From a virus (taxonomy: Duplodnaviria; Caudoviricetes), in IMG/VR virus record IMGVR_UViG_3300043603_000010, positions 26,648-90,647 of that record: a stretch of DNA of 64,000 bases; one strand, written 5' to 3'. This document shows positions 9,770 through 50,758 of the stretch, one piece after another. Position 1 is the first letter of the stretch. Each line of letters begins with the position of its first letter. Below the pieces are notes generated by a model. The model made no database searches and was not told the origin of the DNA. It saw only the letters and a list, made by a program, of their open reading frames with translations. Made by a program: the position numbers and the translations under genes.

Positions 9770-9964
9770 ATGTCCCAGCTGGCGGCATCACTCGAACAGA
9801 CCATCGCGGCGGCCCGTGCAGCGGCCAAGGAGCACGTGGACGCGGCCACGGCGGGACTGGTGGCGCGGATCGAGGAACTGGAAGCCAAAGTGGACCAGCT
9901 GCTGGTCCCGGACAAGGCACCGGCGGCCCGGTCCGCACGCGCCAAGAGCGCCCCCACCCCCTGA
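9770..9964 (+). CDS. small coiled-coil protein
   Basis: GGAGGAG upstream of ATG 9770. Confidence 0.65.
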   Translation: MSQLAASLEQTIAAARAAAKEHVDAATAGLVARIEELEAKVDQLLVPDKAPAARSARAKSAPTP

Positions 9965-9998
9965 CTGACCCGGCGCAGCCAGAGAGGGCGTGGTCCGT

Positions 9999-10523
9999 GT
10001 GACCTGGAGCCCGCCGTTCACAGCGGTGGCGGGGAGCGTGTTCACCGCTGCCCAATTCAATCAGTACGTGAGGGACAACCTCAACGAGACCGGACCGGCG
10101 ATCGTAACGGCGGCCGGGCAGTACCTGGTCTCCGACGCGGCGAACTCGCTCGCGGCCCGCTCCCCGTCCCGTGCTTCGGTCAACACCAGCCAGACCACGA
10201 CCGCCACGTCCTACGGGGACCTGGCCACCGTCGGCCCGGTCGTGACCGTGGTCACCGGCACGTCCGCCCTGGTGACCATCGGGTCCGCGCTCCAGAACTC
10301 GGGTACCGCCAACTCCCTGATGGGGTGGGCCGTCTCCGGGGCGTCCACCATCGCGGTCACGGACGACGTCGGCGGGGCGTACGGCACCACCGGCGCCACG
10401 GTCACCGGGACCTTCCTCCAGACCGGGCTCACCCCGGGTTCGAACGTCTTCACTGCCAAGTACCAGGTCTCCGCCGGTACCGGGACCTTCACCTTCCGGA
10501 ACATCACGGTGCTTCCGTTTTGA
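9999..10523 (+). CDS. minor tail protein
   Basis: MTWSPPFTAVAGSVFTAAQFNQYVRDNL N-terminus typical of actinophage minor tail proteins; Thr/Gly-rich. Confidence 0.75.
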   Translation: MTWSPPFTAVAGSVFTAAQFNQYVRDNLNETGPAIVTAAGQYLVSDAANSLAARSPSRASVNTSQTTTATSYGDLATVGPVVTVVTGTSALVTIGSALQNSGTANSLMGWAVSGASTIAVTDDVGGAYGTTGATVTGTFLQTGLTPGSNVFTAKYQVSAGTGTFTFRNITVLPF

Positions 10524-10783
10524 CCACCGTCAAGCAGTACGTGCAAGCGATCCGGCCGGTGGCCCGGAAAGTCGGCCAGGCCATGGGAGCGGACGTCGGG
10601 ATCCAGTCGGAGGAGCAGCGCATCACGCTCAACCTGATTATGGGCATGGTGTGCGTCCTGATCAAACTCCTGGTGGACGCCGGACTGATCACCGACGCAC
10701 AGGTGACCGTGGCGTTCCAGACGTTCCTCAGCACGCCGAACGACTATCCGGACGTGCCGCCGCAACCGCCGTACGGCAACTGA
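10520..10783 (+). CDS. hypothetical protein (tail-associated)
   Basis: TTGA coupling to upstream gene; GC3-biased frame. Confidence 0.55.
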   Translation: MTTVKQYVQAIRPVARKVGQAMGADVGIQSEEQRITLNLIMGMVCVLIKLLVDAGLITDAQVTVAFQTFLSTPNDYPDVPPQPPYGN

Positions 10784-10796
10784 CCGAGAGGGTTCC

Positions 10797-11879
10797 ATGC
10801 GCATCACGGTCTACCCGGCGGACACCGCCGGTTGCGGCAGCTACCGGTTGCGGTGGCCCGCGCAGGCGCTCATCGCGCAGGAGAGCGGCCACACGATCCG
10901 GGTCCTGGACCCCGAGCAGCGCGACATCGAGCTGAAGATCAAGGACAACGCGGTGGAGCGCCTGGTCCTGCCGAAGGAACCGCCGGACCTGGTGGTCATG
11001 CAGCGGCTCACCCACCCGTGGATGGCTGCTGCCGTCCCGTTTCTGCGCGCTGCGGGGATCGCCGTGGTGGTCGACGTCGACGACGACCTGTCCGCGATCC
11101 ACCCCCGTAATCCTGCGTACATGAGCATGCACCCGCGACCGGCCCGGCTCGCGCAGCAGTACCGGGGGGAGATCCGGCACTCCTGGCAGAACCTGGTGTC
11201 CGCCTGTCAGGACGCGACCCTGGTCACCTGCTCGACTCCCGGACTGATGCCGGTCTACGCCCCGCACGGGCGCGGCGCCGTGGTGCGCAACTGCGTACCG
11301 GAGCGGTACCTGAAGGTGGAGCACCAAGACAGCGACGTGATCGGCTGGCCCGCCGCGCTGGTCTCCCACCCCGACGATCCCGGCGTGGTCGGCGGAGCGG
11401 TCGCCCGCATCGTCGGCGAAGGCGCGCAGTTCTGTACTGTCGGCCCGGCCACGGGGACCGGCGCGGCGTTCGGCCTGCTGCGCGACCCGGCCGGAGCGGA
11501 GATCGAGGACCTGTACGCGTGGCCGGACGCGGTGGCCGAGCTGGGCATCGGCATCGCCCCGCTGGCCGACACCCGGTTCAACCGGTCCAAGTCGGCGCTG
11601 AAGCCGCTGGAGCTGTCTGCTGTCGGCGTGCCGTGGGTCGGCTCGCCCCGGCCGGAGTACGCACGGCTGAACGCGCAGGGCTGCGGTGTGCTCGCCGACA
11701 CGCCCCGGCGCTGGTACAAGGAGCTGAAGAAGCTCCACAACGACGAAAAAGCCCGCACCGACCTCTCTGCCGGTGGCAGGGAAGCGGTGCGGGCGATGAC
11801 GATCGAGGGAAACGCGTGGCGCTGGCTGGAGCTGTGGGAACTGGCCGTGAAGATGCAGCGCGGTCAGGCGCCGGGATAG
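10797..11879 (+). CDS. glycosyltransferase (GT-B/GT4-like)
   Basis: MRITVYPADTAGCGSYRL start, VVDVDDDL, IGIAPLADTRFNRSKSALKPLELSAVGVP motifs. Confidence 0.85.
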   Translation: MRITVYPADTAGCGSYRLRWPAQALIAQESGHTIRVLDPEQRDIELKIKDNAVERLVLPKEPPDLVVMQRLTHPWMAAAVPFLRAAGIAVVVDVDDDLSAIHPRNPAYMSMHPRPARLAQQYRGEIRHSWQNLVSACQDATLVTCSTPGLMPVYAPHGRGAVVRNCVPERYLKVEHQDSDVIGWPAALVSHPDDPGVVGGAVARIVGEGAQFCTVGPATGTGAAFGLLRDPAGAEIEDLYAWPDAVAELGIGIAPLADTRFNRSKSALKPLELSAVGVPWVGSPRPEYARLNAQGCGVLADTPRRWYKELKKLHNDEKARTDLSAGGREAVRAMTIEGNAWRWLELWELAVKMQRGQAPG

Positions 11880-14099: not shown

Positions 14100-14197
14100 C
14101 GTTCTCTCCTTGGTCGTGTACGGGATCCTTGCGCGCCCGCCGCTCCCTCACGGGGTACGCCGGTCCGGTACGGACCACGGCGGCGGGCTCTCCTCAC

Positions 14198-15831: not shown

Positions 15832-16028
15832 GTCTGTGCCTCCGCCCATGTCACGATTGCCGCGTACTGGTCGGCGATCTGCTGTGCGTGCTCGACCTGA
15901 CGGTCCAGCGTCTCCTTGTCGAGCAGGGAGAACGGGCCGTCCCTGTCGGATTCGTACTGCGCCAGCGCCAGGTCCGCCTGTGCGAGGGAGTAGCGCAGCT
16001 CCGCCAGGACCACACCGTCGATCTTCAT
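15828..16028 (-). CDS. hypothetical protein (66 aa)
   Basis: ATGA coupling; GAAGGAGGGG RBS. Confidence 0.6.
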   Translation of the reverse strand: MKIDGVVLAELRYSLAQADLALAQYESDRDGPFSLLDKETLDRQVEHAQQIADQYAAIVTWAEAQT

Positions 16029-16216
16029 CGACGCCCCTCCTTCCAGCAGTCGGAGCAGATGTCCCTGCCGTTCTTCGTCCGGTGCCAGCCCGCCCGACGC
16101 GCCTGACGTCGTGCCTCGGCTTTGGTTCCGGCATCCGGGATCGACCCGGAGTCAAACGGACCCTCGTCATGCTCGGGTACGTCGCAGAACAGGAACGCTC
16201 GTAGATAGACCGTCAC
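16025..16216 (-). CDS. small Zn-finger-like protein (paralog A)
   Basis: FCD...H ... GWHRTKNGRDICSDCWKEG; GTGA coupling. Confidence 0.65.
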   Translation of the reverse strand: MTVYLRAFLFCDVPEHDEGPFDSGSIPDAGTKAEARRQARRAGWHRTKNGRDICSDCWKEGRR

Positions 16217-16407
16217 CGCTGCCCCTCCTTCCAGCAGTCGGGGCAGATGTCCCGGCCGTTCTTCGTCCGATGCCAGCCCTGCCGCCGGAGTCCCTTGCGA
16301 GCAGACGTGGCCGTCGGCCGGGGACCGAGAGGGGAGTCCCAGGCATCGCACCGCGCTCCAGTGTCCTGGTCGACTCCGTCACATTCGATATACGCTCTCG
16401 CGGTCAC
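16213..16407 (-). CDS. small Zn-finger-like protein (paralog B)
   Basis: ECD...C ... GWHRTKNGRDICPDCWKEG; shares ~58 bp with paralog A. Confidence 0.65.
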   Translation of the reverse strand: MTARAYIECDGVDQDTGARCDAWDSPLGPRPTATSARKGLRRQGWHRTKNGRDICPDCWKEGQR

Positions 16408-18310: not shown

Positions 18311-18654
18311 CTCTCCTCATTCCTTGTCGGGTCTGAAAGGTTCTGCTCGCGCCAGTGCGCGATTCCGGACGCGTTCGCCCGGCGGCACTTGGGGCACGGA
18401 GGTTCACCGTTGCGCAGGTGCCTCCGGTAGGCGGTGCGGTCACCGCAGTCCTCGTACCAGCCGATCAGTCCGTGCAGCACGGCCAGGTGGACCGCGTGCA
18501 CGGTGCTCCTGGCGTCCAGCTTCCGGATGGCCCGGTGCACGGCCATCCGGGTTCCCGCCTCGGTGGTTCCGAGCCGCTTGGCGGCCTGGTGGTTGGTGTC
18601 CCCGAGCGCCATGCGCTGGAGCGCGTCCGTCTCCCGCCGTGTCAGCGGTTTCAC
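18307..18654 (-). CDS. LuxR-type HTH regulator fused to Cys/His motif
   Basis: LTRRETDALQRMALGDTNHQAAKRLG...KLDARS LuxR HTH; C-terminal CG...RRHLRNGEPPCPKC. Confidence 0.8.
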   Translation of the reverse strand: MKPLTRRETDALQRMALGDTNHQAAKRLGTTEAGTRMAVHRAIRKLDARSTVHAVHLAVLHGLIGWYEDCGDRTAYRRHLRNGEPPCPKCRRANASGIAHWREQNLSDPTRNEER

Positions 18655-19190
18655 CGGACCGGGCCGGTCATCGTGTACGCGTCCGGGTGGAGTGGGCACC
18701 CGACGTGCCGGTCGGCGTGCATGTGCCGACGGCCGTCCGCCGCGCAGTGCGGAGAAGCGGGGCAGGTCGGCGAGCAGCGGCAGACCGCTCCGGCCGGGGG
18801 CTCGCGCCAGCCGGTCCATCCATGGTCGTCCTTGTCGGCGGTCCAGGCGGCCAGCGCGGCGGTGTCCGCTGCGCTCAGCGTCCCGATACCTCTGCCGCCT
18901 GACGCCGACTTCCAGCCGACCGAGACCGAGACGGTACCGGGGAACGGCGACCGCAGCCGGGCATAGTGCAGAGGGGTCTTGAACACCAGCTCCCGCAGGT
19001 GGTCAGTGCCCAGCCAGGTGCGCAGCTCGGTGAACTGCTCCCGCTCCAGCAGGAACGACGCCCCGCCCCCGATGGTCCGGTGGAACACACGCAGATCCGT
19101 GGTGCGGTCCAGCGGCTTCCGGTACCGGGGTCCGAGTTCGACCACCGTGCGACCGTCGGCACAGCGTGCCTGGAATCCATCGATCTTCAT
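18651..19190 (-). CDS. hypothetical protein with C-terminal Cys/His-rich motif
   Basis: GAGGAGAGAAC RBS. Confidence 0.65.
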   Translation of the reverse strand: MKIDGFQARCADGRTVVELGPRYRKPLDRTTDLRVFHRTIGGGASFLLEREQFTELRTWLGTDHLRELVFKTPLHYARLRSPFPGTVSVSVGWKSASGGRGIGTLSAADTAALAAWTADKDDHGWTGWREPPAGAVCRCSPTCPASPHCAADGRRHMHADRHVGCPLHPDAYTMTGPVR

Positions 19191-19220
19191 CGTTCTCTCC
19201 TCGATCAAGTGGTGCTCGTG

Positions 19221-19293
19221 AGCCCCGAGCAGGTCTCGAACCTGCTGCCTGCTGATTACGAATCAGCTGCTCTACCGGATGAGCTACCGGGGC
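19221..19293 (-). tRNA. tRNA-Thr(CGT), canonical cloverleaf, no encoded CCA
   Basis: GCCCCGG-TA-GCTC/GAGC D arm, GCTGA-TTCGTAA-TCAGC anticodon arm, GCAGG-TTCGAGA-CCTGC T arm, TCGGGGC. Confidence 0.85.
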
Positions 19294-19363
19294 GGGAGGA
19301 GCTTTCTTCCAGAAGGACCGTCGCCGGGTATCTGGCCCGGCGGGGTACTCCCCGCCTTCTTCG

Positions 19364-19435
19364 CTCCCGCTCCGGGGCTCGAACCCGGCCAGCCGACGCC
19401 ATGGACGCCTGCTGTCCTCCGGCAGTGGTGCGGGA
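19364..19435 (-). tRNA. degenerate tRNA-like element, anticodon position CAT
   Basis: T arm CCGGG-TTCGAGC-CCCGG, 6/7 acceptor pairs, weak D and anticodon stems, C33. Confidence 0.5.
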
Positions 19436-19465
19436 AGGTGCCCGGCCGGAGCCGGGCCGTACGGG

Positions 19466-19663
19466 TCAGACCTGGTCCTCCACCATGTGCTTCAGGTGCG
19501 CCTGGTCGGCGTCCCAGGCAGCGGCGTACTGGAGCGCCTCGCCCTCGCGGCACACGGCCACCGGGACGACGTCCCCGGTGCTCTCGTCCAGCTTGGCGGT
19601 ACACCCGGTGTGCTCCACCAGGTGGCTCTCGAACTCGCGCTGGGTGCTCGGGTCTCCGAACAT
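19466..19663 (-). CDS. hypothetical protein (65 aa)
   Basis: AAAGGAGAG RBS; sits between two tRNA-like elements. Confidence 0.7.
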   Translation of the reverse strand: MFGDPSTQREFESHLVEHTGCTAKLDESTGDVVPVAVCREGEALQYAAAWDADQAHLKHMVEDQV

Positions 19664-19698
19664 AGTGTCCTTCTCTCCTTTGTCGGGTGGTGCGTGCA

Positions 19699-19784
19699 GT
19701 GGCGGGCGGCGATTCGAACGCCGCACCCCTCGCCGGTCGCTCCTCTCCGGAGCTACTGGGTTCGGCTCTGCTCATGATCCGCCA
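19699..19784 (-). ncRNA. degenerate class-II-sized tRNA-like element
   Basis: T arm CGGCG-TTCGAAT-CGCCG and TGGCGG/CCGCCA acceptor pairing; central GCTC/GAGC hairpin; D arm not recognisable. Confidence 0.4.
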
Positions 19785-19830
19785 GTACAGATGCCTCTGT
19801 ACTTCCAGCTGCCGGTGCGCACCGGCCGCG

Positions 19831-19902
19831 CTCCTCGCCGTGGATTCGAACCACGATCAGCCACTCCAGGGGCGGCTGTCCTGCCGGTTGGACGAACGGG
19901 GA
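19831..19902 (-). tRNA. tRNA-Gln(CTG), atypical (C33, one acceptor mismatch)
   Basis: U1-A72, G73, GTCC/GGAC D stem, GCCGC-CCCTGGA-GTGGC, CGTGG-TTCGAAT-CCACG. Confidence 0.75.
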
Positions 19903-19972
19903 AGGTGTCCGGCCGGAGCCGGACCGTTCTTCGATCTCTTTCGCTCTTTTCCATCTTACTGCGCACTTACGG

Positions 19973-20044
19973 TGGACGCAACGCGGGTCGAACGCGCATC
20001 CCGCCTCTTTTAAGGAGGCTGCTCTTCCGTTGAGCTATGCGCCC
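19973..20044 (-). tRNA. class I tRNA with TAA anticodon and alanine-type acceptor stem (G3:U70, A73)
   Basis: GGGCGCA/TGCGTCC-A acceptor, GCTC/GAGC, GCCTC-CTTAAAA-GAGGC, 5-nt variable loop, GCGCG-TTCGACC-CGCGT. Confidence 0.85.
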
Positions 20045-20050
20045 CCGGGG

Positions 20051-20758
20051 TCAGTCCTCCGGGACCTGTACAGGGGTGGCGAAGACACGGGTGTACGTGT
20101 TGATCGTGGGGTACTCCTCACTGCGGCCGTACACCTCCCAGCGCCGGGCCCTGGTCGCTTCTGCGACGGTACGCGCGAAGCCGGGGCCGATGCACACGGG
20201 TTCCCCGCCGTCGTCCGGCAGCACGCAGCGGCCGTTCTTCGTGAACGGTGCTCCGTCGACGTGGACGGAGACGACCACGCCACGACGGGCGGTGCCGCTG
20301 TCCGTCCAGCCGACCCACGATCCGGCCTCGAACGGCGCGGTGGCCGGACGCGGAACCGACCGCTTCTTGCGGGACCGCCTGACGTCGCGCACGACCGCTT
20401 CCGTCTCACCGGGGAAACTGGCCCGCAGCCGGGCGTACGCGCCGTCCTGGGGACGCGCCTTCGGTCCGGTAAGGGCCAATTCGGCGTCCAGGTACCGGAG
20501 GCGTGCCTCACGCTCCTCCGCCTTCAGCACAGAGCGGGCTTCCAGGTCGACTCCGGGGCCGTAACCGGGATCCCGGGCCATTGCGGCGTAGTACTCCTCC
20601 TTGGCGTCGTCGCGGACCTTCTCCAGCCCGGCCAGGACGCCCGTGTAGCCGTCGCGCACGGCGGCGGTGACCGTCTTCGTGTGCGCGGCCTGCGTGCCTG
20701 ATGTGGTGACTACGGTCTCCGCTCCAGCGAAGTGCAGCCTGGTGGTGTGCTCGGTCAT
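20051..20758 (-). CDS. hypothetical protein (235 aa)
   Basis: GGAGGA RBS; ATGA coupling. Confidence 0.7.
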   Translation of the reverse strand: MTEHTTRLHFAGAETVVTTSGTQAAHTKTVTAAVRDGYTGVLAGLEKVRDDAKEEYYAAMARDPGYGPGVDLEARSVLKAEEREARLRYLDAELALTGPKARPQDGAYARLRASFPGETEAVVRDVRRSRKKRSVPRPATAPFEAGSWVGWTDSGTARRGVVVSVHVDGAPFTKNGRCVLPDDGGEPVCIGPGFARTVAEATRARRWEVYGRSEEYPTINTYTRVFATPVQVPED

Positions 20759-21204
20759 GTCGTCCTCCGTGCGGTGTGGTTGTACCAGGACACCGAGCGC
20801 GAGCAGGACCCGCAGCGGATCCACCGGCGCTTCGTCTGGGTGTTCTCGAACGAGACCGGCTGCGCGGGGTGCACCTCACGGGACCGCTGGAGGCAGTCCT
20901 GGCAGTCGTTGGCCTGCTCGTTGGGGCCCCGCAGCAGGAACGGCACGCCGTGCCCGCAGACGGCCGCCTGGGGGATGTCCCCGAACAGTCCGGGGAACTG
21001 CGCCCGGCCCGGGAACGCGGCACGGGCCGCCATCACGACGCCCTTGTAGCGGAACCCGTCCAGGCCGTCGGCCAGGGCGCGGACGCGTTCCAGCGCGTCC
21101 AGCTCCCACTCCAGTTCCAGCCGTTCGAGCAGGACGCGCAGGGAGTCCTGCGTCTTCGGGTGCATGCCGTCCGCGAAGGACAGCAGGTCGTCACGTGCGG
21201 ACAT
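20755..21204 (-). CDS. hypothetical protein with CGH/CxxC motifs
   Basis: AGAGGAG RBS; AVCGHG, CQDC, CGSC. Confidence 0.65.
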   Translation of the reverse strand: MSARDDLLSFADGMHPKTQDSLRVLLERLELEWELDALERVRALADGLDGFRYKGVVMAARAAFPGRAQFPGLFGDIPQAAVCGHGVPFLLRGPNEQANDCQDCLQRSREVHPAQPVSFENTQTKRRWIRCGSCSRSVSWYNHTARRTT

Positions 21205-21772
21205 GGCTTTCATCTCCTCTCTCGGGGTGGGGCGCTCCGCACCCGTTGCAGGTGCAGCGCCCGGTGTCCTTGTCGCGGCACTTCGGGCAGCGGCAGTAGC
21301 AGAGCAGGAACCCGCGAGCGGGCCCGCAGTAGCTGGCGTGCTCCGGGGACAGCGGCGGGTGCTTGCGTGCGCCCTGCTCCACCAGGTCGACCAGCAGAGA
21401 CGCCCGCCGCGCGGCGGTCCCCGGGTCCAGGCCTGCGTCCAGGTACGCCCGCACCAGGTGGTCCACCACTGTGCGCCGCGCCGCTCGGCTGTCCTCCATG
21501 GCCTTCCTCCATCTGAGCATCCGCTGGTAGTCGTTCAGGGCGCGTCGGCAGCGTCGGCAGGGCGGGGTCCGCTCGCGCCGGTGGATCATCCATCCGGCGT
21601 AGCTGCCGCACTTCCCGCTGGTGCAGGCGGCTCGTGCCCGCAGGCAGTCCCCGCAGGGACGCTCGTTGCGGCGCCGGTGCCGCAGCCACCCGTCGTTGCT
21701 GCCGCAGTCCTTCAGGCCGATCCCCAGCATGCGGCGCTGGTCCTCCGTCCAGACGACTCCGTGCCCGTTCAT
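21191..21772 (-). CDS. Cys/His-repeat (putative Zn-binding) protein
   Basis: Two CG..xGW..H.R..E.PC..C units plus C-terminal CYCRCPKC...CTCNGC. Confidence 0.7.
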   Translation of the reverse strand: MNGHGVVWTEDQRRMLGIGLKDCGSNDGWLRHRRRNERPCGDCLRARAACTSGKCGSYAGWMIHRRERTPPCRRCRRALNDYQRMLRWRKAMEDSRAARRTVVDHLVRAYLDAGLDPGTAARRASLLVDLVEQGARKHPPLSPEHASYCGPARGFLLCYCRCPKCRDKDTGRCTCNGCGAPHPERGDESHVRT

Positions 21773-21850
21773 TCGGCCTTCTCTCCTCGATCTGTTCAGG
21801 CGTACAGGACCGGGGTAGGCGTCCGGCAGTCAGCGCATCGGAGGTGCCCC

Positions 21851-21919
21851 GTGCTGGAGACCGTCCTGATCATCGTGCTCATCGTCGCCATCGTCCTGTT
21901 CGTCCTGCGACGGTTGTAG
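21851..21919 (+). CDS. 22-aa hydrophobic peptide, antisense to the arm (type I toxin-like)
   Basis: GGAGGTG RBS, GTG start; MLETVLIIVLIVAIVLFVLRRL*. Confidence 0.65.
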   Translation: MLETVLIIVLIVAIVLFVLRRL

Positions 21920-21934
21920 CCGGTCGTCCCTGCG

Positions 21935-22006
21935 CACTCGCAGCCGGTCATGATCCGGCATCTCCGCCTTGAAAGGGCGGCGGGCATCCGATTACCCCAT
22001 GCGAGC
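21935..22006 (-). tRNA. tRNA-Glu(TTC)-like with non-canonical T loop (ATCATGA)
   Basis: CCGCC-CTTTCAA-GGCGG anticodon arm; GCCGG-ATCATGA-CCGGC; acceptor GCTCGCA/TGCGAGT. Confidence 0.7.
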
Positions 22007-22036
22007 GGGTGCCCGGCCGGAGCCGGGCGGGTGGTG

Positions 22037-22639
22037 CTACTTCTTGTGTGCGGAGAAGCTGAACGACGGTGCTCCGACCAGCTGGACCGACTTCGTGGCC
22101 GCGTCCCACTTGGCCGGGCCGAACACGGTCTGCACCGGACCCTCCCAGTAGTCGGCGTAGGGCTTGCCGTCGGCACCGACGCAGATCACGTAGGTCCCGG
22201 CGGAGTCGCCGGAGTAGACGCCGGTCGGGTCCATCTGCCCGACCGTGATGTTGCCGCCGTTCGACTCGCTGTGCCCGACCACCTGTTGCGGGTTGGTCAG
22301 CTGGTCGGTGGACGGGATCGGCGCACCGATCGACGGGCAGACCTGGATCGGCGCGTACCCGGCGGACCCGGAAGCGCCCATCGGGAAGAAGAACGTGGTG
22401 GTCTCGACACCCTGTGCCTGCGCGTTCTCCAGCTCGATCAGGTTCTGCCGGAGCTGGCTGTACGTGTAGCCCGGGATGCCCTGGTTGTTGATCAGAGTCC
22501 CGGAGTCGGTGGCCTGCTTGGACGACTCGACGTTGTTGGCGCTCGGCTTGCTGCTGCCGAAGCAGGCGGTCAACCCGAATGTGGCCAGCACGGCGACCGA
22601 GACGGCCACGGCGATACGCGACCCGGCGATGTTCCTCAT
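22037..22639 (-). CDS. lipoprotein
   Basis: Signal peptide with lipobox GLTA-C; conserved-looking GPVQT/YVICVG region. Confidence 0.8.
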   Translation of the reverse strand: MRNIAGSRIAVAVSVAVLATFGLTACFGSSKPSANNVESSKQATDSGTLINNQGIPGYTYSQLRQNLIELENAQAQGVETTTFFFPMGASGSAGYAPIQVCPSIGAPIPSTDQLTNPQQVVGHSESNGGNITVGQMDPTGVYSGDSAGTYVICVGADGKPYADYWEGPVQTVFGPAKWDAATKSVQLVGAPSFSFSAHKK

Positions 22640-22653
22640 GCGGCGGTTCCCCT

Positions 22654-23037
22654 TCACTTGGCGGACCCTGCGGAGCAGTGGTCAGCGACGTACGCGGCCT
22701 GGTCGGTCGGCAGCGGATCGCCGGTGACCTGGTCCGCGTCCTGGCAGACGATGTTGACGAGTGCCTTCTGCTGCGCCTTCAGCGCTGCCGTCTCCGCTGC
22801 GTCCCCGGAGACCTCGGTGATCTGCGTCCCGATGGCCTGCGCGTCAGCGATCTTGTTCGTGATCTGCTCGCGCAGGGTCTGCTGGTTGCTGTAGCCGTTG
22901 CGGACCAGGTGCGCGTCCCGGGCGGCGTTCTGACCGGCGAACCACCATCCGGCCTGCCAGCCCCCCAGGACGATCCCGGTGACGATGGCAGCGGCCAGCA
23001 GGACGCCGAGGACACCTCTGGTCATTGCTGTGAACAC
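22654..23037 (-). CDS. membrane-anchored protein (partner of the lipoprotein)
   Basis: N-terminal TM helix, GGWQAGWWF, two C-terminal Cys. Confidence 0.75.
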   Translation of the reverse strand: MFTAMTRGVLGVLLAAAIVTGIVLGGWQAGWWFAGQNAARDAHLVRNGYSNQQTLREQITNKIADAQAIGTQITEVSGDAAETAALKAQQKALVNIVCQDADQVTGDPLPTDQAAYVADHCSAGSAK

Positions 23038-23064
23038 ATGCTCTCCTCTCACTCGGTGTGTGCG

Positions 23065-23137
23065 TGCGCCCGGCAGGGGTCGAACCTGCGCGCTCCGGGG
23101 CTTCACTCCGGTGCTCTGCCAGCTGAGCTACGGACGC
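23065..23137 (-). tRNA. tRNA-Phe(GAA), atypical anticodon loop (G32, C38, 31-39 mismatch)
   Basis: GCGTCCG/CGGGCGC-A, GCTC-AGCTGGCA-GAGC, CCGGA-GTGAAGC-CCCGG, GCAGG-TTCGACC-CCTGC. Confidence 0.75.
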
Positions 23138-23164
23138 GGGCGCCCCGGCGGTCCGGGGCCGTTC

Positions 23165-23593
23165 TCAGAACTCCGGCAGCGGCTGCACCGGCGGCAGCCA
23201 GGCGACCTCCACTCCGTCGGACTTGCGGACCCAGCGTTTGCCGGGGCCCTGCGACCGGTACGGGTCAACGCTGTCGGCCAGGTGCGCCCGTGCGGGGTTG
23301 GCCACCAGGTCGGACCTGGGGCTCACCCGCAGCTCCTGCGCCACGGCGTGCCGGGTCAGTTCGTCGGCCCGCTTCAGCCGGACGGACAGTTCGGTGGCCA
23401 CGGTGCAGGCGGTGGACGTCGCGTTGTTGACGTACGGCATCACCATCCGCGCGTCCTCCGCTCCCTTCTCCAACCACTGGCAGGCCTGGTTGACCGCCCG
23501 GCGCAGCTCGGTCGGTGTGGCCGCCTTGACGAAGGCTCTCAACCGATCCTCGAACGCGTCGATATCGCCGATCCGTACGCTAGGTGCGTTCAT
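23165..23593 (-). CDS. hypothetical protein
   Basis: AGAGGAGAG RBS. Confidence 0.7.
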   Translation of the reverse strand: MNAPSVRIGDIDAFEDRLRAFVKAATPTELRRAVNQACQWLEKGAEDARMVMPYVNNATSTACTVATELSVRLKRADELTRHAVAQELRVSPRSDLVANPARAHLADSVDPYRSQGPGKRWVRKSDGVEVAWLPPVQPLPEF

Positions 23594-23605
23594 CGTGCTC
23601 TCCTC

Positions 23606-23878
23606 TCACTTCGGGTTCTGCCGGGCCACGCGCTGCATGAAGTCGATCGCGTTGACCAGGCTGACGCGCTGCTCCGGGGTGTCGGTCCCGGTGATGTGCG
23701 TCACGTGCGGCACCCTGGCCATGTCGGTGTGGACCCGCCAGAACGGCCCTGCGCTCCCGTCGCGGAAGACGTCCGGGTAGTCGTAGACCAAGTGCGTCCG
23801 TGCGGCTTCGTGGACGCAGTCGGCATGGACGAACCCGGCTTGCGCCGCAGCCGCGTCCAGCATCTTCAGACTGGCCAT
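23606..23878 (-). CDS. hypothetical protein (90 aa)
   Basis: AGAGGAGAG RBS directly after tRNA-like element. Confidence 0.7.
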   Translation of the reverse strand: MASLKMLDAAAAQAGFVHADCVHEAARTHLVYDYPDVFRDGSAGPFWRVHTDMARVPHVTHITGTDTPEQRVSLVNAIDFMQRVARQNPK

Positions 23879-23906
23879 CGTGCTCTCCTCTCGATCGGTG
23901 TATGCG

Positions 23907-23989
23907 TGCGCCCGGCCGGACTCGAACCAGCACTGTCACCGACTGCCCTTACAGGCGTCGGCTGCCTCTGCCTATTGGGCTACGGACGC
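23907..23989 (-). ncRNA. tRNA-like element with extended anticodon arm (Leu-type D arm)
   Basis: Acceptor identical to the Phe element; D arm GCCCAATAGGCAGAGGC; anticodon stem GCCGAC/GTCGGT capped by GCCT-GTAA-GGGC; canonical T arm. Confidence 0.65.
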
Positions 23990-24016
23990 GGGTGCCCGGC
24001 CGGAGCCGGGCCGTTC

Positions 24017-24454
24017 TCAGGACCGGCCGATCCGCACCGTGTTGGGTGCCTGCGGCTTGACGTACAGGACGTTGATCCCGCTGACTTCCAGCTGGCCGTC
24101 CTTCATCTTCACCTCGAACCCCTCTGCCGGACCCGAGTCCGCGTCCCGGAACTCCACCGTGACACCGTGGCCCAGAGGGCGGACATCCTTGCCCGGGTCG
24201 TCACCCCAGCCCCCGTCACTGACGGCGGAGGTGGACAGCCACAGGAAGGTGTCGCTGTCGGCGGGTCCCTCGTTCAGCAGGGCACGGGCCGCGTCCACCT
24301 CTTCGGCCGCCTTCTCCGCAGTGCGGAGCCTGGACGCCTCTGCACTGCGGAGCCGGACGTCCAGGACGGCAACCAGCTGCTGCACCCATGCAGGCTGCTT
24401 GGCCAGCCTGGGGTCCTTGGCCTTCTCGTGCAGCTGCTCGTTGGTCATCGTCAT
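24017..24454 (-). CDS. hypothetical protein
   Basis: AGAGGAGAG RBS; DPRLAKQPAWVQQL and PLGHGVTVEF motifs. Confidence 0.7.
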   Translation of the reverse strand: MTMTNEQLHEKAKDPRLAKQPAWVQQLVAVLDVRLRSAEASRLRTAEKAAEEVDAARALLNEGPADSDTFLWLSTSAVSDGGWGDDPGKDVRPLGHGVTVEFRDADSGPAEGFEVKMKDGQLEVSGINVLYVKPQAPNTVRIGRS

Positions 24455-24481
24455 CGTGCTCTCCTCTCGGTCGGTCGTGCG

Positions 24482-24552
24482 CACCCCCGGCCGGTCATGA
24501 TCCGGCACTTCCGCCTTGAGGGGGCGGCGAGCATCCGTTACTCAACGGGGGC
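24482..24552 (-). tRNA. tRNA-Glu(CTC)-like with non-canonical T loop (ATCATGA) and C33
   Basis: GCCCCCGTT...CCGCC-CCCTCAA-GGCGG...CGGGGGT closely resembles actinomycete tRNA-Glu(CTC). Confidence 0.7.
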
Positions 24553-24583
24553 GGGTGCCCGGCCAGGCCGGGCTGTTCGGTGG

Positions 24584-24805
24584 TCACGGCTCCAGGCACT
24601 CCTCCGAGACCTCGAATGCGGAGAAGGCGACCACGTGCAGGTCCGCCGGATAGACGCCCTTCTCCTTGGCCCATTCCTGGAGCATGAGCCTCTCAGTCTG
24701 GTCCTCGGAGAAGACGTCGACCGCGTCCCCGGTGATCGTCCACTTGCCGGAGACGAGACCGAAGGAGTGTGCTTCCACCAGGGCGACGTACGCGTACCTG
24801 GCCAC
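24584..24805 (-). CDS. hypothetical protein (73 aa)
   Basis: ORF track; GTG 2 nt after upstream stop. Confidence 0.6.
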   Translation of the reverse strand: MARYAYVALVEAHSFGLVSGKWTITGDAVDVFSEDQTERLMLQEWAKEKGVYPADLHVVAFSAFEVSEECLEP

Positions 24806-24807
24806 GG

Positions 24808-25053
24808 CTACCGCCCTTCCGGCTTCAGCAGGGACACCCGGACGTCCGTGTCCGTGCCGGGGTACGGCGCGAGCAGGGAATCCGTACGCAGATGGACACC
24901 GAGCCGGGCACCGGCAGCCATGCCCGGCAGGCTCAGCACTTCCCAGCGGGCCGCCTGCAACAGCGCGTTGCGGTTGTCGAGCGCGGTCAGCGTCAGGAAC
25001 ATGCGCTCTTCCTCGGTCGGCTCCGCCACCAGGTCGAACAGGGTCCTGGTCAT
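24808..25053 (-). CDS. hypothetical protein (81 aa)
   Basis: CGACCGAGGAGAGAAC RBS. Confidence 0.65.
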   Translation of the reverse strand: MTRTLFDLVAEPTEEERMFLTLTALDNRNALLQAARWEVLSLPGMAAGARLGVHLRTDSLLAPYPGTDTDVRVSLLKPEGR

Positions 25054-25086
25054 CGTTCTCTCCTCGGTCGTCGGATCGTACGTGCG

Positions 25087-25169
25087 TTCCCCGCCGTGGA
25101 CTCGAACCACGATCGCCGAAGCACCGGAACCAGCCGGGTACGGTCTGTCCGCCGGTCGGACAGCAGGGA
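25087..25169 (-). ncRNA. tRNA-Gln-derived tRNA-like element with expanded anticodon arm
   Basis: TCCCTGC/GCGGGGA acceptor, GTCC/GGAC D stem, CGTGG-TTCGAGT-CCACG T arm shared with the Gln gene; no 7-nt anticodon loop. Confidence 0.6.
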
Positions 25170-25215
25170 TGGTGCCAGCCGGGCAGGGTTCGTCACACCC
25201 CCTGCCCGGCCGGGT

Positions 25216-25416
25216 CTAGTGGAGGACCATCGCGAGAAGGAACGCCGTCATGAAACCGATGACGACGATGGCGGTCGGTAGGCCTGGATGGTCGGAGACG
25301 GACAGGAAGCCGTCCGTGATCTCGTCCAGGACGGACCGCCGTGGCTTCTCCGGTCCGACGCGCTTCGGGTCGTACCGACGGGATGGCCCGTTGCGGACGT
25401 ACAGCCCGGCGTTCAC
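25216..25416 (-). CDS. small membrane protein
   Basis: C-terminal TM helix; GTGA coupling. Confidence 0.6.
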   Translation of the reverse strand: MNAGLYVRNGPSRRYDPKRVGPEKPRRSVLDEITDGFLSVSDHPGLPTAIVVIGFMTAFLLAMVLH

Positions 25417-25553
25417 AGGCTCAGCAGCCAGAGCAGCAGGGGGTACATCATCGCGCAGATGATCAGGCTGAACGCCAGCTCCACCACGGTCTGCGCCGCG
25501 TTGGACCGGGAGGCGAACCTCCCGATTACGTCCACGATCCGCCCGGCGTTCAC
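25413..25553 (-). CDS. small membrane protein (46 aa)
   Basis: GTGA couplings at both ends; VVELAFSLIICAMMYPLLLWLLSL. Confidence 0.55.
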   Translation of the reverse strand: MNAGRIVDVIGRFASRSNAAQTVVELAFSLIICAMMYPLLLWLLSL

Positions 25554-25726
25554 CGCGCGTGGGTCAGGTCGTACCGGACCCGGCGGGGAGCGCCGGAGAC
25601 GAACGCCAGGGCCCGCTCCTGCGCCCGTTGCGGGCTGACGTAGGAGGCGAAGACCCGGCGGACCGGCCTGCCGTCACTGCCGGTGTAGGCCACCTGAACG
25701 CAGTGGCGGGTGTTGATCGTGCTCAT
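25550..25726 (-). CDS. hypothetical protein (58 aa)
   Basis: AGAGGAGAAC RBS. Confidence 0.6.
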   Translation of the reverse strand: MSTINTRHCVQVAYTGSDGRPVRRVFASYVSPQRAQERALAFVSGAPRRVRYDLTHAR

Positions 25727-25802
25727 GGCCGTTCTCCTCTCGGTCGGACTGAGTGCCCGTGGCCGGGGAACGGACCGCAGTCCGCTTCCCGCCATGCTGT
25801 AC

Positions 25803-26198
25803 TCAGCTCCCTGCGCGGTACTTCTCGATCGCCTCGGCAACCGCCAGCACCAGTCCGCCATTGTCCAAGCGACCGGACAGCTGCTGCTGGAGCCCAGCCG
25901 CGTGGATAACCTCCCACGCCGCCTCTACACGCCGGTCGTACGCCAGCTGATCACTGGTGAGCAGTTTCGGGGAGTACCCGACGTACCGGTTGCTCAGGTC
26001 GAAGTAGAGGCCCGTGGACAGTACGAACTGCCAGTCGAACGGGTACCGGCTGTCCCGGATCTCCGTCACGGTGGCGTACTTCCGTCCGATCTTGGTCACG
26101 GTCACCGGAACCGGCTCCGGAGCCTTACGGCCGGACTGTCCGGGCAGGACCAGCAGTTCCATGCCGACGGACAGCGTCGGCATCTCGGGTCGCTCCAT
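25803..26198 (-). CDS. hypothetical beta-barrel-like protein
   Basis: VTVTKIGRKYATV motif; AAGGAGAGG upstream. Confidence 0.65.
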   Translation of the reverse strand: MERPEMPTLSVGMELLVLPGQSGRKAPEPVPVTVTKIGRKYATVTEIRDSRYPFDWQFVLSTGLYFDLSNRYVGYSPKLLTSDQLAYDRRVEAAWEVIHAAGLQQQLSGRLDNGGLVLAVAEAIEKYRAGS

Positions 26199-26330
26199 GA
26201 TCTTCGTCCCTCTCCTTGGTCGTTGTTCAGCTGGGGTGGGCGGGTTTCTTTCAGCCGTACCTTCACCGGCACCACGGCCCCGTCTGGCGGGTACCGGCCG
26301 GTTTCTGAGTACCGCCCACGGCCTTCACGT

Positions 26331-26375
26331 GCTCCCCGGTGCCTTGACGGCGTACGGCGGATCCCGCCGGGGAGC
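26331..26375 (-). repeat. branched hairpin repeat, copy A (also 29504-29548 and 31079-31130)
   Basis: GCTCCCCGG/CCGGGGAGC outer stem enclosing CGTAC and GCC-loop-GGC. Confidence 0.8.
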
Positions 26376-26382
26376 TGGTGGA

Positions 26383-26847
26383 TCAGATCAGACGGGACAG
26401 CTGGTCGACGTCGGCCAGGGCGTCGTTGACCGCGTCCTCCAACTGGTGGCGGACAGCCATCTGCTCGCCCTCATAGGAGACGAACCAGCTGCCGGTGCCG
26501 TCCTCCCACTCGGTCTCCGCCGCGTACGGCTCGCCCCGGTAGGTGAAGGTGTACGCGCTGGGGAGCCCGTTGGCGCCGGTCTCCGCTGCGGTCAGCACGA
26601 CCGTGCTGCCGTCGGGACGGAGGTGACCGAGAGTGCCAAGGGGAGCTTCGTCCGCCAGGATCTCCTCTGGACCGGCGTACTCGTTGCGCCCGTCGATCTC
26701 CGCGAACACTCCGGCGTTGTCCAGGGTGTCGAGGTCCCGGGCGATCTGCGCGTACACGCCGATCTTCCCGTCGGCCGCGATCTGCCGCAGCCGGGCCAGT
26801 GCCTCGCTGACCGCCGGAGTGACGTCCATGGGCTGGATCATGGTCAA
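26383..26847 (-). CDS. hypothetical protein
   Basis: ORF track; GAGAGGA upstream. Confidence 0.65.
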   Translation of the reverse strand: MTMIQPMDVTPAVSEALARLRQIAADGKIGVYAQIARDLDTLDNAGVFAEIDGRNEYAGPEEILADEAPLGTLGHLRPDGSTVVLTAAETGANGLPSAYTFTYRGEPYAAETEWEDGTGSWFVSYEGEQMAVRHQLEDAVNDALADVDQLSRLI

Positions 26848-50420: not shown

Positions 50421-50758
50421 GCGGCGGCCACCCACTGCGCCAGGGCGCGCCGTCCGGCGCGGCGCCGGTCCACGGGCCGGATCCGGAGCGCACGGCGGAA
50501 CGCGGTGACCGTCCGCGCGGTGGCTTCCGGCCGGGTCCAGGTGAACCAGTTCAGCGCGTACAGCGCGGCGTAGAACGACGTGCCGAGCAGCAGGCCGGGC
50601 TGCCCCACGCCGTACAGGGCGTAGACCGCCCACAGGACCTGCGTCCCCAGGCCCATCAGCCAGCCGACGGCCAGCTTGCGGCCGATCACGAACTGCCCGG
50701 CCAGGCTGACCGGGAACAGGCAGTACTGGAGTGCGACGGACAGGAACCAGTGCAGCAT
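50417..50758 (-). CDS. membrane protein (PnuC-like fragment)
   Basis: IGRKLAVGWLMGLGTQVLWAVYA...NWFTW; three TM helices. Confidence 0.55.
   Translation of the reverse strand: MLHWFLSVALQYCLFPVSLAGQFVIGRKLAVGWLMGLGTQVLWAVYALYGVGQPGLLLGTSFYAALYALNWFTWTRPEATARTVTAFRRALRIRPVDRRRAGRRALAQWVAAA

Follow-up and report, generated by a model that had tools for sequence, protein, structure and literature searches.

tRNA and tRNA-like elements set between the genes of a soil actinophage operon as candidate RNA-processing signals

The 90.6-kb genome of an uncultured soil actinophage (G000), whose hosts are high-GC bacteria, carries ten tRNA or tRNA-shaped genes, all on the minus strand and interspersed with small protein genes in a single long leftward operon (Table 1). 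We propose, with a probability of about 0.5, that host RNase P and RNase Z cut these tRNAs and t-element-like mimics out of a shared transcript and thereby segment the mRNA. The elements lie between genes and mostly behind copies of one strong hairpin, so host enzymes probably cut the message into hairpin-capped pieces. Five or six of the elements probably also work as tRNAs. Both the cleavages and their stabilising effect are what we infer from the sequence.

Results

A cassette runs in a constant order: a stop codon and a 7-bp GC hairpin, four unpaired bases (NCCN), the tRNA or tRNA-like element with its base 73, a CGCA-type leader with a long purine-rich Shine-Dalgarno sequence, and the start codon. 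Such cassettes occupy almost every second gene junction of the operon. Read directly from the sequence, the distance from stop codon to element is 6-48 nt in seven of the ten cases and that from element to next start codon 27-35 nt in six, placing elements against cistrons within a polycistronic unit, as in mitochondrial t-elements and tRNA punctuation. CGCA directly follows base 73 in six elements, and CCA is encoded in none. This layout agrees with a preliminary description of the region, which had reported ten minus-strand elements at these lower coordinates, seven of them within about 50 nt of an upstream stop codon, six followed by a gene within about 40 nt, and most with a CGCA-like trailer and no CCA; all ten were recovered by ARAGORN, Rfam and our own acceptor/T-arm scan.

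Table 1. Promoter, hairpins, tRNA and tRNA-like elements and two of the intervening reading frames, listed from right to left
Feature	Position	Strand	Properties
Nearest upstream consensus promoter	27779..27807	-	TTGACA, 17 nt, TACATT; promoter scan
Hairpin 7 (variant)	25175..25213	-	14-bp stem; fold -33.4 kcal/mol, z -3.9
E10, 83-nt tRNA-like	25087..25169	-	7/7 acceptor, canonical T arm, A73; below Rfam detection
Hairpin before Glu-CUC	24557..24573	-	7-bp stem, 3-nt loop; tail ACCC 24553-24556; after ORF C (24584-24805)
tRNA-Glu (CUC)	24482..24552	-	C33, G1-U72, T loop ATCATGA; ARAGORN
ORF D	24017-24454	-	DUF7239 (Pfam); after Glu-CUC and CGCA leader
Hairpin before E3	23994..24011	-	7 bp, UCCG loop; tail ACCC 23990-23993; 6 nt past ORF D stop
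E3, 83-nt tRNA-like	23907..23989	-	7/7 acceptor; Rfam 35.1 bits; fold z -2.8; repeats D4, D12; then leader and ORF E (23606-23878)
Hairpin before tRNA-Phe	23142..23159	-	7 bp, ACCG loop; tail GCCC 23138-23141; after ORF F (23165-23593)
tRNA-Phe (GAA)	23065..23137	-	Rfam 54.7 bits; then leader and ORF G
ORF G	22654-23037	-	membrane protein; downstream of tRNA-Phe leader
Hairpin before Glu-UUC	22011..22028	-	7 bp, UCCG loop; tail ACCC 22007-22010; after ORF H (22037-22639, lipoprotein-like)
tRNA-Glu (UUC)	21935..22006	-	T loop ATCATGA; Rfam 50.8 bits
tRNA, UAA anticodon	19973..20044	-	class I shape, G3-U70, A73; Rfam 57.2 bits; starts 6 nt past ORF K (20051-20758), no hairpin
Hairpin before tRNA-Gln	19907..19924	-	7 bp, UCCG loop; tail ACCU 19903-19906; no ORF before it
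tRNA-Gln (CUG)	19831..19902	-	U1-A72, G73, C33, one acceptor mismatch; ARAGORN, Rfam 37.7 bits
E8, 86-nt tRNA-like	19699..19784	-	6/7 acceptor pairs, canonical T arm, no recognisable D/anticodon arms; abutted by a different 7-bp hairpin (19785-19802); ORF L (19466-19663) downstream
Hairpin before E9	19440..19457	-	7 bp, UCCG loop; tail ACCU 19436-19439; after ORF L
E9, 72-nt degenerate cloverleaf	19364..19435	-	CAU loop, C33, U1-A72, 6/7 acceptor; relaxed ARAGORN, own scan
tRNA-Thr (CGU)	19221..19293	-	canonical; Rfam 62 bits; ORF M (18651-19190) 30 nt later

The scoring that the preliminary description had suggested as a check bears out most of the elements as tRNAs. ARAGORN called seven of ten at default settings, and six reached our cut-off for tRNA membership, the Rfam RF00005 gathering score of 29 bits; it was not reached by Glu-CUC (called by ARAGORN only), E8, E9 and E10. 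We also searched the complete 90.6-kb genome with criteria of our own, namely a T loop on a 5-bp T stem and no fewer than six of seven acceptor pairs. The minus-strand matches were the eight elements whose T loop is of the TTCGA type and no others; the two Glu tRNAs were invisible to this search because their T loop is ATCATGA. The Thr, UAA-anticodon, Phe and Glu-UUC elements have a 5-bp anticodon stem closed by a 7-nt loop that contains U33. C33 replaces U33 in Gln, Glu-CUC and E9, and a standard loop is absent from E3 (GUAA tetraloop), E10 (6-nt loop) and E8 (no arm). At least five elements look like working tRNAs, and the earlier view of them as cassettes rather than (only) decoding tRNAs was too strong.

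E3, E8 and E10 appear unable to decode, and E9 probably is too. E3 could not do so because its 'anticodon arm' is a bulged 10-bp helix capped by GUAA; its acceptor stem and flanks have the same sequence as those of tRNA-Phe. The middle of E10 consists of non-tRNA hairpins in place of the normal arms, one of them bearing the 6-nt loop. All four elements contain, in sequence, a 5-bp T stem with a TTCGA-type loop, and in the minimum-energy folds acceptor and T arm form in E10, E3 and E8, and the acceptor alone in E9. The non-decoding members thus keep acceptor stem and T arm, as t-elements do. The preliminary description had the anticodon arm destroyed in such copies, which is true of E10, E8 and E3 but not of E9, a weak but complete cloverleaf that falls below the Rfam and default ARAGORN thresholds.

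These copies bear on a rather unlikely alternative, in which the set comprises ordinary tRNA genes and decaying pseudogenes, the hairpins serve as independent attenuators, terminators or 3' stabilisers of the genes upstream, the spacing stems from duplicated and homogenised cassettes, and any cutting of mRNA is an unselected by-product. That five or six elements appear functional fits such a set, and so does the presence of three paralogue groups with common flanks. Repeat D8 is common to the Glu-CUC and Glu-UUC units. Being paralogues, the copies within this genome are not independent observations. Against simple decay, the aberrant copies have rebuilt middles, not point mutations, and retain six or seven acceptor pairs and perfect T-arm sequences. 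Compensatory changes occur as well: the two Glu tRNAs differ by three compensatory acceptor pairs, and Gln and E10 differ from E9 in this manner at pairs 5-68 and 6-67.

A GC hairpin precedes seven of the ten elements at a fixed distance, and three elements lack it. On folding, six of the seven have stems of 7 bp and loops of 3-4 nt (UCCG in four cases), with exactly four unpaired bases behind the stem (ACCC, n=3; ACCU, n=2; GCCC, n=1); the hairpin before tRNA-Phe has an arm sequence altered on both sides relative to the others. The seventh, a variant that starts right after the stop of ORF A (25216-25416), is followed by five unpaired bases (25170-25174, ending ACCA). All seven hairpins had been described before with a spacer of exactly 5 nt; the hairpins stand, but the spacer is four in six of them and five only behind the 14-bp stem. 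A degenerate pattern for hairpin plus spacer matched nine times in the window, the whole 64-kb stretch of DNA that was analysed, against 0.74 expected, and all four exact matches and one 2-mismatch match lie directly 5' of an element.

The nearest upstream consensus promoter is one of three identical units, each followed by a conserved structured leader RNA with seven covarying pairs across the three copies and the orthologue in the relative G001. Between 27779 and 19200 no further promoter of the E. coli-type consensus was found, and Streptomyces promoters are diverse; a weak promoter-like site at 19953-19981 overlaps the 3' end of the UAA-anticodon tRNA. None of the seven hairpins is backed by a U-tract or reported by the terminator scan: their stems are followed by NCCN and then the G/C-rich acceptor strand, not by the tail of an intrinsic terminator. 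The cassettes thus appear to lie within one leftward transcription unit, with co-transcription suggested by this arrangement. The preliminary description had likewise read a polycistron. A point against the processing reading is that, in actinophage phiC31, hairpins lacking U-tails have been reported to terminate transcription in the early region (Ingham 1995, as cited in PMC3993855). Were the hairpins here full terminators, as the pseudogene account allows, the tRNAs and the genes downstream would be left without an evident promoter.

The relative G002 (87.8 kb) is collinear with this phage at 65-72% identity and carries, in the same arm, seven to eight dispersed tRNA or tRNA-like elements; in front of two of them stands the same hairpin, its tail being CCA. 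By blastn, the Glu-UUC unit is 83% identical to a Glu cassette of G002. The six clustered cassettes of G002 all lie between one promoter (63715-63743) and one canonical U-tract terminator (50453-50489), and the operon ends of G002 bear true U-tract terminators; the lineage therefore employs such terminators at points where transcription ought to end. Of 21 flanking proteins, the two phages have only 3 in common, so the search of related phages that had been suggested earlier found the cassette architecture recurring between different genes. A dedicated scan of G000, G001 and G002 for 40-50-nt minihelices, with the acceptor stacked directly on the T arm, found none, and the lineage uses full-length tRNA shapes.

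A shared architecture with almost entirely different flanking genes is also what one would expect if the cassette ends (hairpin and leader) were mainly recombination joints that shuffle accessory genes, with tRNAs as passengers. In one soil contig (X3), ORF E runs at its end directly into the Glu-UUC cassette, and the joints fall on cassette borders; with a depth of 2.4 and a side of 21 nt, the case is weak. The repeats are only 20-50 nt long, and conserved non-decoding tRNA shapes with compensatory changes would go unexplained. We regard recombination as the main role as very improbable, and it would not exclude processing.

Hairpin and leader motif are also found where no tRNA is present: in G001, at other places in the same operon and in three further large phages. 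The hairpin is a general intercistronic feature of the lineage, and since it also occurs alone, the hairpin-tRNA unit looks like a tRNA inserted behind an older hairpin rather than a purpose-built module. The constant distance could therefore be a product of duplicated and recombined cassettes, and not of any need of RNase P. These observations favour the pseudogene account, as does the lack of any tRNAs in close relatives, which makes the elements dispensable. The retention of acceptor and T arms in non-decoding copies and the recurrence in G002 speak for the processing cassettes originally proposed.

An unrelated actinophage family (L139, L140, L144 and L143) has a comparable slot. At one syntenic junction, a hairpin is always followed, after 3-4 nt, by a tRNA-shaped element. 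A homologous element of 31-37 bits is present in three members; its 6-nt 'anticodon' loop differs at 2-4 of 6 positions, and its stems covary at pairs 27-43 and 51-63. In the fourth, the hairpin is the same but the element is a canonical tRNA-Met (67.7 bits), and distant relatives have the hairpin alone. The slot retains its tRNA shape even as the loop drifts or another tRNA takes the place. Pseudogene decay does not readily account for a non-decoding element that is held at one junction among 78-86%-identical relatives with covarying stems, and that is replaced by another tRNA instead of being lost.

Loop variation could alternatively point to an anti-defence set, composed of nuclease-resistant substitutes for host tRNAs that anticodon nucleases cleave during infection, with the odd copies as decoys or sponges for anticodon nucleases or tRNA-binding defence proteins. 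Phage tRNAs have been proposed to escape VapC/PrrC-type nucleases via loop mutations (PMC10264068), and several elements have altered anticodon loops: C33 in Gln, Glu-CUC and E9, the loops of E10 and E3, and a CUA-anticodon tRNA in G002. Moreover, the canonical elements read abundant, not rare, codons, and none of the 58 leftward genes contains a UUA codon, so the UAA-anticodon tRNA, at least, is not there for reading those genes; together, this argues against simple codon supplementation. Nonetheless, we consider an anti-defence set improbable. It leaves the hairpin, the fixed tail and the placement at nearly every second junction unexplained; a decoy should mimic a host loop, yet the second family has a hypervariable one, and E8 lacks an anticodon arm altogether. 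For the decoding copies it is compatible with punctuation.

Discussion

In the processing mechanism that we favour, RNA polymerase would read through the hairpins, which carry no U-tract. Host RNase P would cut at tRNA base 1, and RNase Z or exonucleases would cut after base 73, thereby releasing the tRNAs and dividing the transcript into pieces that each span one to three genes. The upstream segment would end in a stable hairpin plus 4 nt, as natural Streptomyces RNA 3' ends do, and the downstream segment would begin with the conserved leader. E3, E8, E10 and probably E9 might be retained as t-element-like processing or stability signals.

Mitochondria provide the tRNA punctuation model. In plants, mitochondrial t-elements are tRNA-like structures next to cistrons, and the tRNA 5' and 3' endonucleases are thought to set the mRNA ends there (Forner et al. 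2007, PMC1920247). The phage elements resemble them as non-decoding tRNA shapes directly beside cistrons of predicted long transcripts. They differ in belonging to a bacterial virus, in the predicted use of bacterial RNase P (an RNA enzyme) with RNase Z, and in the addition of a GC hairpin 4 nt upstream and a conserved leader downstream. In E. coli, the secG-leuU mRNA-tRNA co-transcript is separated by RNase P (Mohanty and Kushner 2007, PMC2241853). The phage would likewise join protein gene and tRNA on one transcript; however, that type involves single canonical tRNAs at operon ends, whereas the phage has ten elements, four counted as non-decoding, operon-wide and with a dedicated hairpin.

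Actinobacterial gene ends often carry very stable GC hairpins shortly past stop codons with few U behind them (Czyz et al. 2014, PMC3993855; PMC12207403), and Streptomyces RNA 3' ends in the Term-seq data of the TERMITe atlas lie a median of 4 nt past the hairpin base (PMC12207403). In the phage, by contrast, the fifth base after the stem is tRNA base 1, so an endonuclease cut could make that 3' end without termination. Just before start codons, Cluster K mycobacteriophages have a repeated motif (SAS/ESAS) upstream of many genes, with an inverted repeat in front of about half of the copies (Pope et al. 2011, PMC3203893). The phage leader is likewise an actinophage repeat in that position, but its sequence is a different, purine-rich motif and not the 13-bp SAS motif located 3-8 bp before start codons, and SAS/ESAS have no tRNA between inverted repeat and start-associated motif.

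Alongside plant-mitochondrial t-elements, the closest functional analogues are the prophage hammerhead ribozymes that flank single genes or short blocks and are proposed to cut transcripts into gene-length mRNAs (Perreault et al. 2011, PMC3088659), and the earlier statement that such an architecture had not been described in phages needs qualifying to that extent. Both systems place structured RNA between genes, and the flanked genes vary among relatives. In the phage, however, the host's tRNA-processing enzymes would do the cutting, with tRNA shapes as their substrates: an Rfam gathering scan of the window returned tRNA only, and self-cleaving ribozymes were likewise absent from an E-value scan of 18500-26500. 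The enzymes would have to come from the host, as the phage encodes neither RNase P or RNase Z nor a CCA-adding enzyme; PolyA_pol (CCA-adding enzyme), Lactamase_B_2 (the metallo-beta-lactamase fold of RNase Z) and RtcB had no match in the genome.

A point against a stabilising effect is that RNase Z would leave the downstream mRNA with a 5'-monophosphate end, which could make it less stable rather than more.

Ten tRNA and tRNA-like elements within a leftward operon arm

The phage genome G000 comprises 90,647 bp (about 68% G+C; bases 26648-90647 form the window), is 100% complete according to CheckV, and encodes a tape measure protein, a primase-helicase, a DNA polymerase and a helicase, a set typical of tailed actinophages. 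Small genes between 12.2 and 52.1 kb of the window constitute a single leftward (minus-strand) arm, and the tRNA-bearing cassettes lie inside it. The ten elements of the preliminary description proved to be real: a whole-genome scan, which required six or more of the 7 acceptor pairs to enclose a 5-bp T stem and T loop, found ends that match its coordinates, with the two Glu tRNAs falling outside that scan because both bear an ATCATGA T loop (Table). On the minus strand of G000 the scan returned exactly eight elements, all within the cassette region, and with a strict TTCGA loop the sole further match in the genome was the tRNA-like domain of the phage Y RNA. ARAGORN called seven tRNAs on the minus strand, and six elements exceeded the 29-bit threshold of the Rfam tRNA model; relaxed ARAGORN settings also reported E10 and E9, amid many false positives.

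Table. Coordinates of the elements and other features (window positions unless a genome or contig is named).
Feature	Coordinates	Strand	Observations
tRNA-Thr-CGU	19221-19293	-	Rfam 62 bits, normal loop
E9	19364-19435	-	Weak cloverleaf, CAU loop, C33; relaxed ARAGORN and acceptor/T-arm scan
E8	19699-19784	-	6/7 acceptor pairs, perfect T arm, middle not tRNA-like
tRNA-Gln-CUG	19831-19902	-	Rfam 37.7 bits, C33
UAA-anticodon tRNA	19973-20044	-	Rfam 57.2 bits, normal loop; class I
tRNA-Glu-UUC	21935-22006	-	Rfam 50.8 bits, normal loop, ATCATGA T loop
tRNA-Phe-GAA	23065-23137	-	Rfam 54.7 bits, normal loop
E3	23907-23989	-	Rfam 35.1 bits; 10-bp bulged helix capped by GUAA as anticodon arm
tRNA-Glu-CUC	24482-24552	-	C33, ATCATGA T loop
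E10	25087-25169	-	7/7 acceptor pairs, perfect T arm, middle not tRNA-like
Promoter plus leader copies	27600-27862; 31105-31364; 32205-32469	-	Leader about 100 nt, conserved in relative G001
Y-shaped intercistronic elements	26328-26378; 29501-29551; ~14110-14180	-	7-9-bp closing stem around two mini-hairpins, then 1-2 bases; first two copies 98% identical
Direct repeats	16020-16099; 16208-16287		80 nt each, 86% identical
22-codon ORF	21851-21919	+	GTG start, GGAGG site 6 nt upstream
Ro60/TROVE gene and adjoining tRNA-like match of Y-RNA-like units	G000 ~9850-11500		Upstream of the window
G002 intrinsic terminators	G002 50453-50489 (L165 10453-10489); 68566-68610 (L166 8566-8610)	-	Canonical, at operon ends
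G002 amber-reading tRNA	G002 57027-57096 (L159 543-613)	-	70 nt, CUA anticodon, Rfam 40.6 bits
tRNA-Glu(CUC) of an unrelated viral contig	L075 4235-4307	-	Own promoter-like site

The elements fall into three paralogue groups, namely the two Glu tRNAs, Phe with E3, and Gln with E9 and E10, the last sharing U1-A72, and acceptor and T stems show compensatory differences within these groups; the cassette copies within G000 are paralogues. In acceptor stem and flanks E3 is identical to tRNA-Phe, and its fold has a z score of -2.8. Acceptor and T stems had been said to persist where the anticodon arm is destroyed, which is borne out by E10, E8 and E3; the T arm of E9 is absent from the minimum-energy fold. 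Plain tRNAs accompanied by pseudogenes with duplicated flanks would be another account of the cassettes, and we regard it as rather unlikely.

None of the ten elements encodes CCA. A family search of G000 gave no match to PolyA_pol (CCA-adding), Lactamase_B_2 (RNase Z fold) or RtcB, and maturation of the elements must therefore rely on host enzymes. No UUA codon occurs in 58 leftward genes (10,096 codons), and the tRNAs other than the one with the UAA anticodon read codons that are common in these genes, so simple codon supplementation is a poor explanation. The UAA-anticodon tRNA, nominally a 'Leu' tRNA, may act on host UUA codons, or may not decode at all; its G3-U70 pair and A73 make up the alanine identity set. 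Alternatively, the elements could be nuclease-resistant anti-defence tRNAs or decoys (PMC10264068), a role that we consider doubtful.

Hairpins, spacers and leaders

A degenerate hairpin-plus-spacer pattern matched the window nine times against 0.74 expected, and all four exact matches, together with one 2-mismatch match, lie directly 5' of an element. Folding confirmed the seven hairpins proposed earlier and corrected their spacing: the reported 5 nt included the last stem pair. Six hairpins consist of a G/C stem of 7 bp closed by a loop of 3-4 nt, which reads UCCG in four of them; their folding energies are -15 to -18 kcal/mol, and exactly four unpaired bases (ACCC in three, ACCU in two, GCCC in one) separate them from tRNA base 1. 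The seventh, before E10, pairs over 14 bp, and the five bases behind it end in ACCA. The hairpins start 0-11 nt 3' of a stop codon. In six elements base 73 is directly followed by CGCA and a conserved purine-rich Shine-Dalgarno leader, with the start codon 27-35 nt on. At other junctions of the operon, the CGCA-type leader known from behind the tRNAs is preceded by different hairpins or by Y-shaped elements.

Sequence reading and a terminator scan found a U-tract behind none of the seven hairpins. Such a tract is needed for termination by mycobacterial RNA polymerase, and hairpins lacking one have been suggested to act as RNA stabilisers or to set RNA 3' ends (PMC3993855). In Streptomyces, Term-seq finds the median RNA 3' end 4 nt beyond the base of the hairpin (PMC12207403), a position that coincides exactly with the onset of tRNA base 1 in the cassettes.

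A simple scan for an E. coli-type consensus returned only three identical promoter units between 15 and 34 kb of the window (at 32414, 31309 and 27807) and none between 19.2 and 25.4 kb; the UAA-anticodon tRNA, however, overlaps a weak candidate at its 3' end. Behind each of the three units lies a structured leader RNA that is conserved and shows seven covarying pairs, making it a candidate for antitermination or regulation at the start of each leftward transcription unit.

Comparison with relatives of G000

The relative G001 (82.9 kb) is collinear with G000 at 65-83% identity and contains no tRNA at all; it nevertheless retains hairpins behind its stop codons and the same leader of CGCA type in front of genes. 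tRNAs are likewise missing from seven more distant metagenomic relatives. All eight relatives found via the phrog_1221 protein (L007, L013-L019) are tRNA-free, precluding cross-genome covariation of the G000 elements. The exact G000 hairpin has five matches in IMG/VR, none adjoining a tRNA; it stands between genes of three other large phages without one. Since hairpin and leader persist in tRNA-free relatives, the base architecture consists of these two parts, with the tRNA placed between them.

The hairpin-tRNA unit, which the preliminary description suggested seeking in related phages, recurs in G002 (87.8 kb, 100% complete, collinear with G000 at 65-72%), a genome found via the leader motif. 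Its same arm bears 7-8 dispersed tRNA or tRNA-like elements, with tRNAs Glu-CUC and Thr-CGU behind the same hairpin with a CCA tail, and others behind different hairpins at 2-7 nt. The G002 tRNA-Glu has the ATCATGA T loop and G1-U72 in common with G000, and its T stem differs by a compensatory change. Of 21 flanking proteins, only 3 occur in both genomes. Recombination joints would be a further explanation for elements among shuffled genes, and in our judgement a very unlikely one. The six clustered G002 cassettes lie between one promoter and one canonical U-tract terminator. The terminators at G002 operon ends combine 16-20-bp stems with a U-tract, whereas the intercistronic hairpins lack this tract. 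The amber-reading tRNA of G002 is followed by the leader and a gene start.

Among 50,697 deposited phage genomes, no DNA match, near or distant, to the region or to single cassettes was found, and proteins K and H of the operon retrieved no useful syntenic relatives. A run search located the stretch in only three soil DNA runs, two of them probably its source, and listed no RNA run. The X3 soil contigs (single contigs, depth below 5, short sides) weakly hint at a deletion at the cassette level and an altered position -1; in one of them, the hint is of a relative whose ORF E (23606-23878 in the window) is joined directly to the Glu-UUC cassette.

A tRNA-shaped junction in a second phage family

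A pattern search combining a hairpin arm with a T loop gave 119 matches, mostly due to chance, of which only L083 was relevant. This fragment (L083/L139) belongs to an actinophage unrelated to G000. Between the small gene after its major capsid gene and the next gene, a stop codon is followed by a hairpin, ACCA, a tRNA-like element, a Shine-Dalgarno sequence and a start codon. The slot is kept in five contigs with 78-86% identical capsid proteins. Three sequence variants have one tRNA-like homologue in common (Rfam 31-37 bits), in which a 6-nt loop replaces the anticodon loop and differs between variants at 2-4 of 6 positions. Variation is almost absent from the D arm and T loop, and at pairs 27-43 and 51-63 both partners are substituted, a covariation drawn from only three distinct homologous sequences. 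In one member, a canonical tRNA-Met (67.7 bits) takes the place of this homologue, preceded by the same hairpin. Where capsid identity drops to 47-49%, as in relatives that include Kibdelosporangium and Amycolatopsis prophages, the hairpin stands alone; a search of genome contigs with the L083 capsid protein yielded only distant prophages of this kind, with a hairpin and no tRNA. By this comparison, the junction keeps a tRNA shape and not a codon-reading function.

In the unrelated viral contig L075, the 16-bp leader hairpin of a tRNA-Glu(CUC) ends 1-3 nt before base 1 and abuts the tRNA in a different arrangement.

Possible function of the cassettes

If the tRNAs are expressed and have no promoter or terminator of their own, they would have to be cut out of the operon transcript, and this excision would necessarily segment the mRNA. 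We propose, at even odds (about 0.5), that segmentation or end-capping of the mRNA would itself be useful, because there are non-decoding copies, the architecture is kept across shuffled genes, and the slot of the second family behaves as described. This proposal and the three alternatives weighed above are not mutually exclusive.

The hairpin and its tail could additionally mimic a tRNA acceptor end, such that RNase P cleavage would leave the mRNA with a CCA-type 3' end that is spared by host exonucleases and repairable by the CCA-adding enzyme. The basis for this idea, which we think improbable, is a 7-bp helix followed by NCC and one base. Of 21 cassettes, 12 have a tail of NCCN or CCA, many of these being paralogues, and an exact CCA or NCCA occurs in E10, two cassettes of G002, L139 and its family member L144. 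If true, a viral operon would combine tRNA-style punctuation with protection of mRNA 3' ends by mimicry of tRNA ends.

Other origins were considered and rejected. An N4-like promoter function of the hairpin is contradicted by the lack of an evident phage RNA polymerase and by hairpins that follow stop codons without a tRNA. The elements are full-length, numerous and not adjacent to an integrase, unlike attP or integration-site remnants. The acceptor strands, with 5' and 3' parts only 70-86 nt apart, speak against tmRNA or Y-RNA domains, and the real Y-RNA/Ro60 cassette is located elsewhere in the genome. Mobile repeats of the MITE or REP type do not fit copies that share one orientation, are confined to this operon arm and lack terminal repeats.

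The closest analogues include mitochondrial tRNA punctuation and plant-mitochondrial t-elements (PMC1920247), hammerhead ribozymes flanking single prophage genes (PMC3088659), E. coli secG-leuU (PMC2241853) and the SAS/ESAS repeats of Cluster K mycobacteriophages (PMC3203893); our literature searches found no account of tRNA-based punctuation in a phage. A dedicated scan of G000, G001 and G002 for shorter minihelices, in which an acceptor stem stacks on a T arm, returned none, so that the cassettes represent a form with full-length tRNA shapes and a coupled hairpin. Should RNase P and RNase Z cut the cassettes, as initially suggested, the host tRNA-maturation machinery would cut and cap the mRNAs of a long operon and set their relative levels. 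This would constitute a bacterial-virus counterpart of mitochondrial punctuation and t-elements, provide a non-decoding reason for odd or "broken" phage tRNAs, and account for the U-tract-free hairpins that follow actinophage genes. The compact and portable unit of hairpin, 4 nt, tRNA shape and leader could serve as an insulator or processing part in multi-gene Streptomyces constructs. The comparative data, with the same slot holding different tRNA shapes and with hairpin-only relatives, make the idea directly testable.

Other features of the genome

G000 also carries a predicted RNA quality-control module, composed of a Ro60/TROVE gene and Y-RNA-like units. Two direct repeats lie within a gap of 376 nt in the leftward arm. 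Another gap, of 160 nt, follows tRNA-Glu(UUC) and contains a 22-codon ORF antisense to any operon read-through; its purely hydrophobic peptide, which ends in RRL, could be a small membrane peptide or the product of a type I toxin-like gene.
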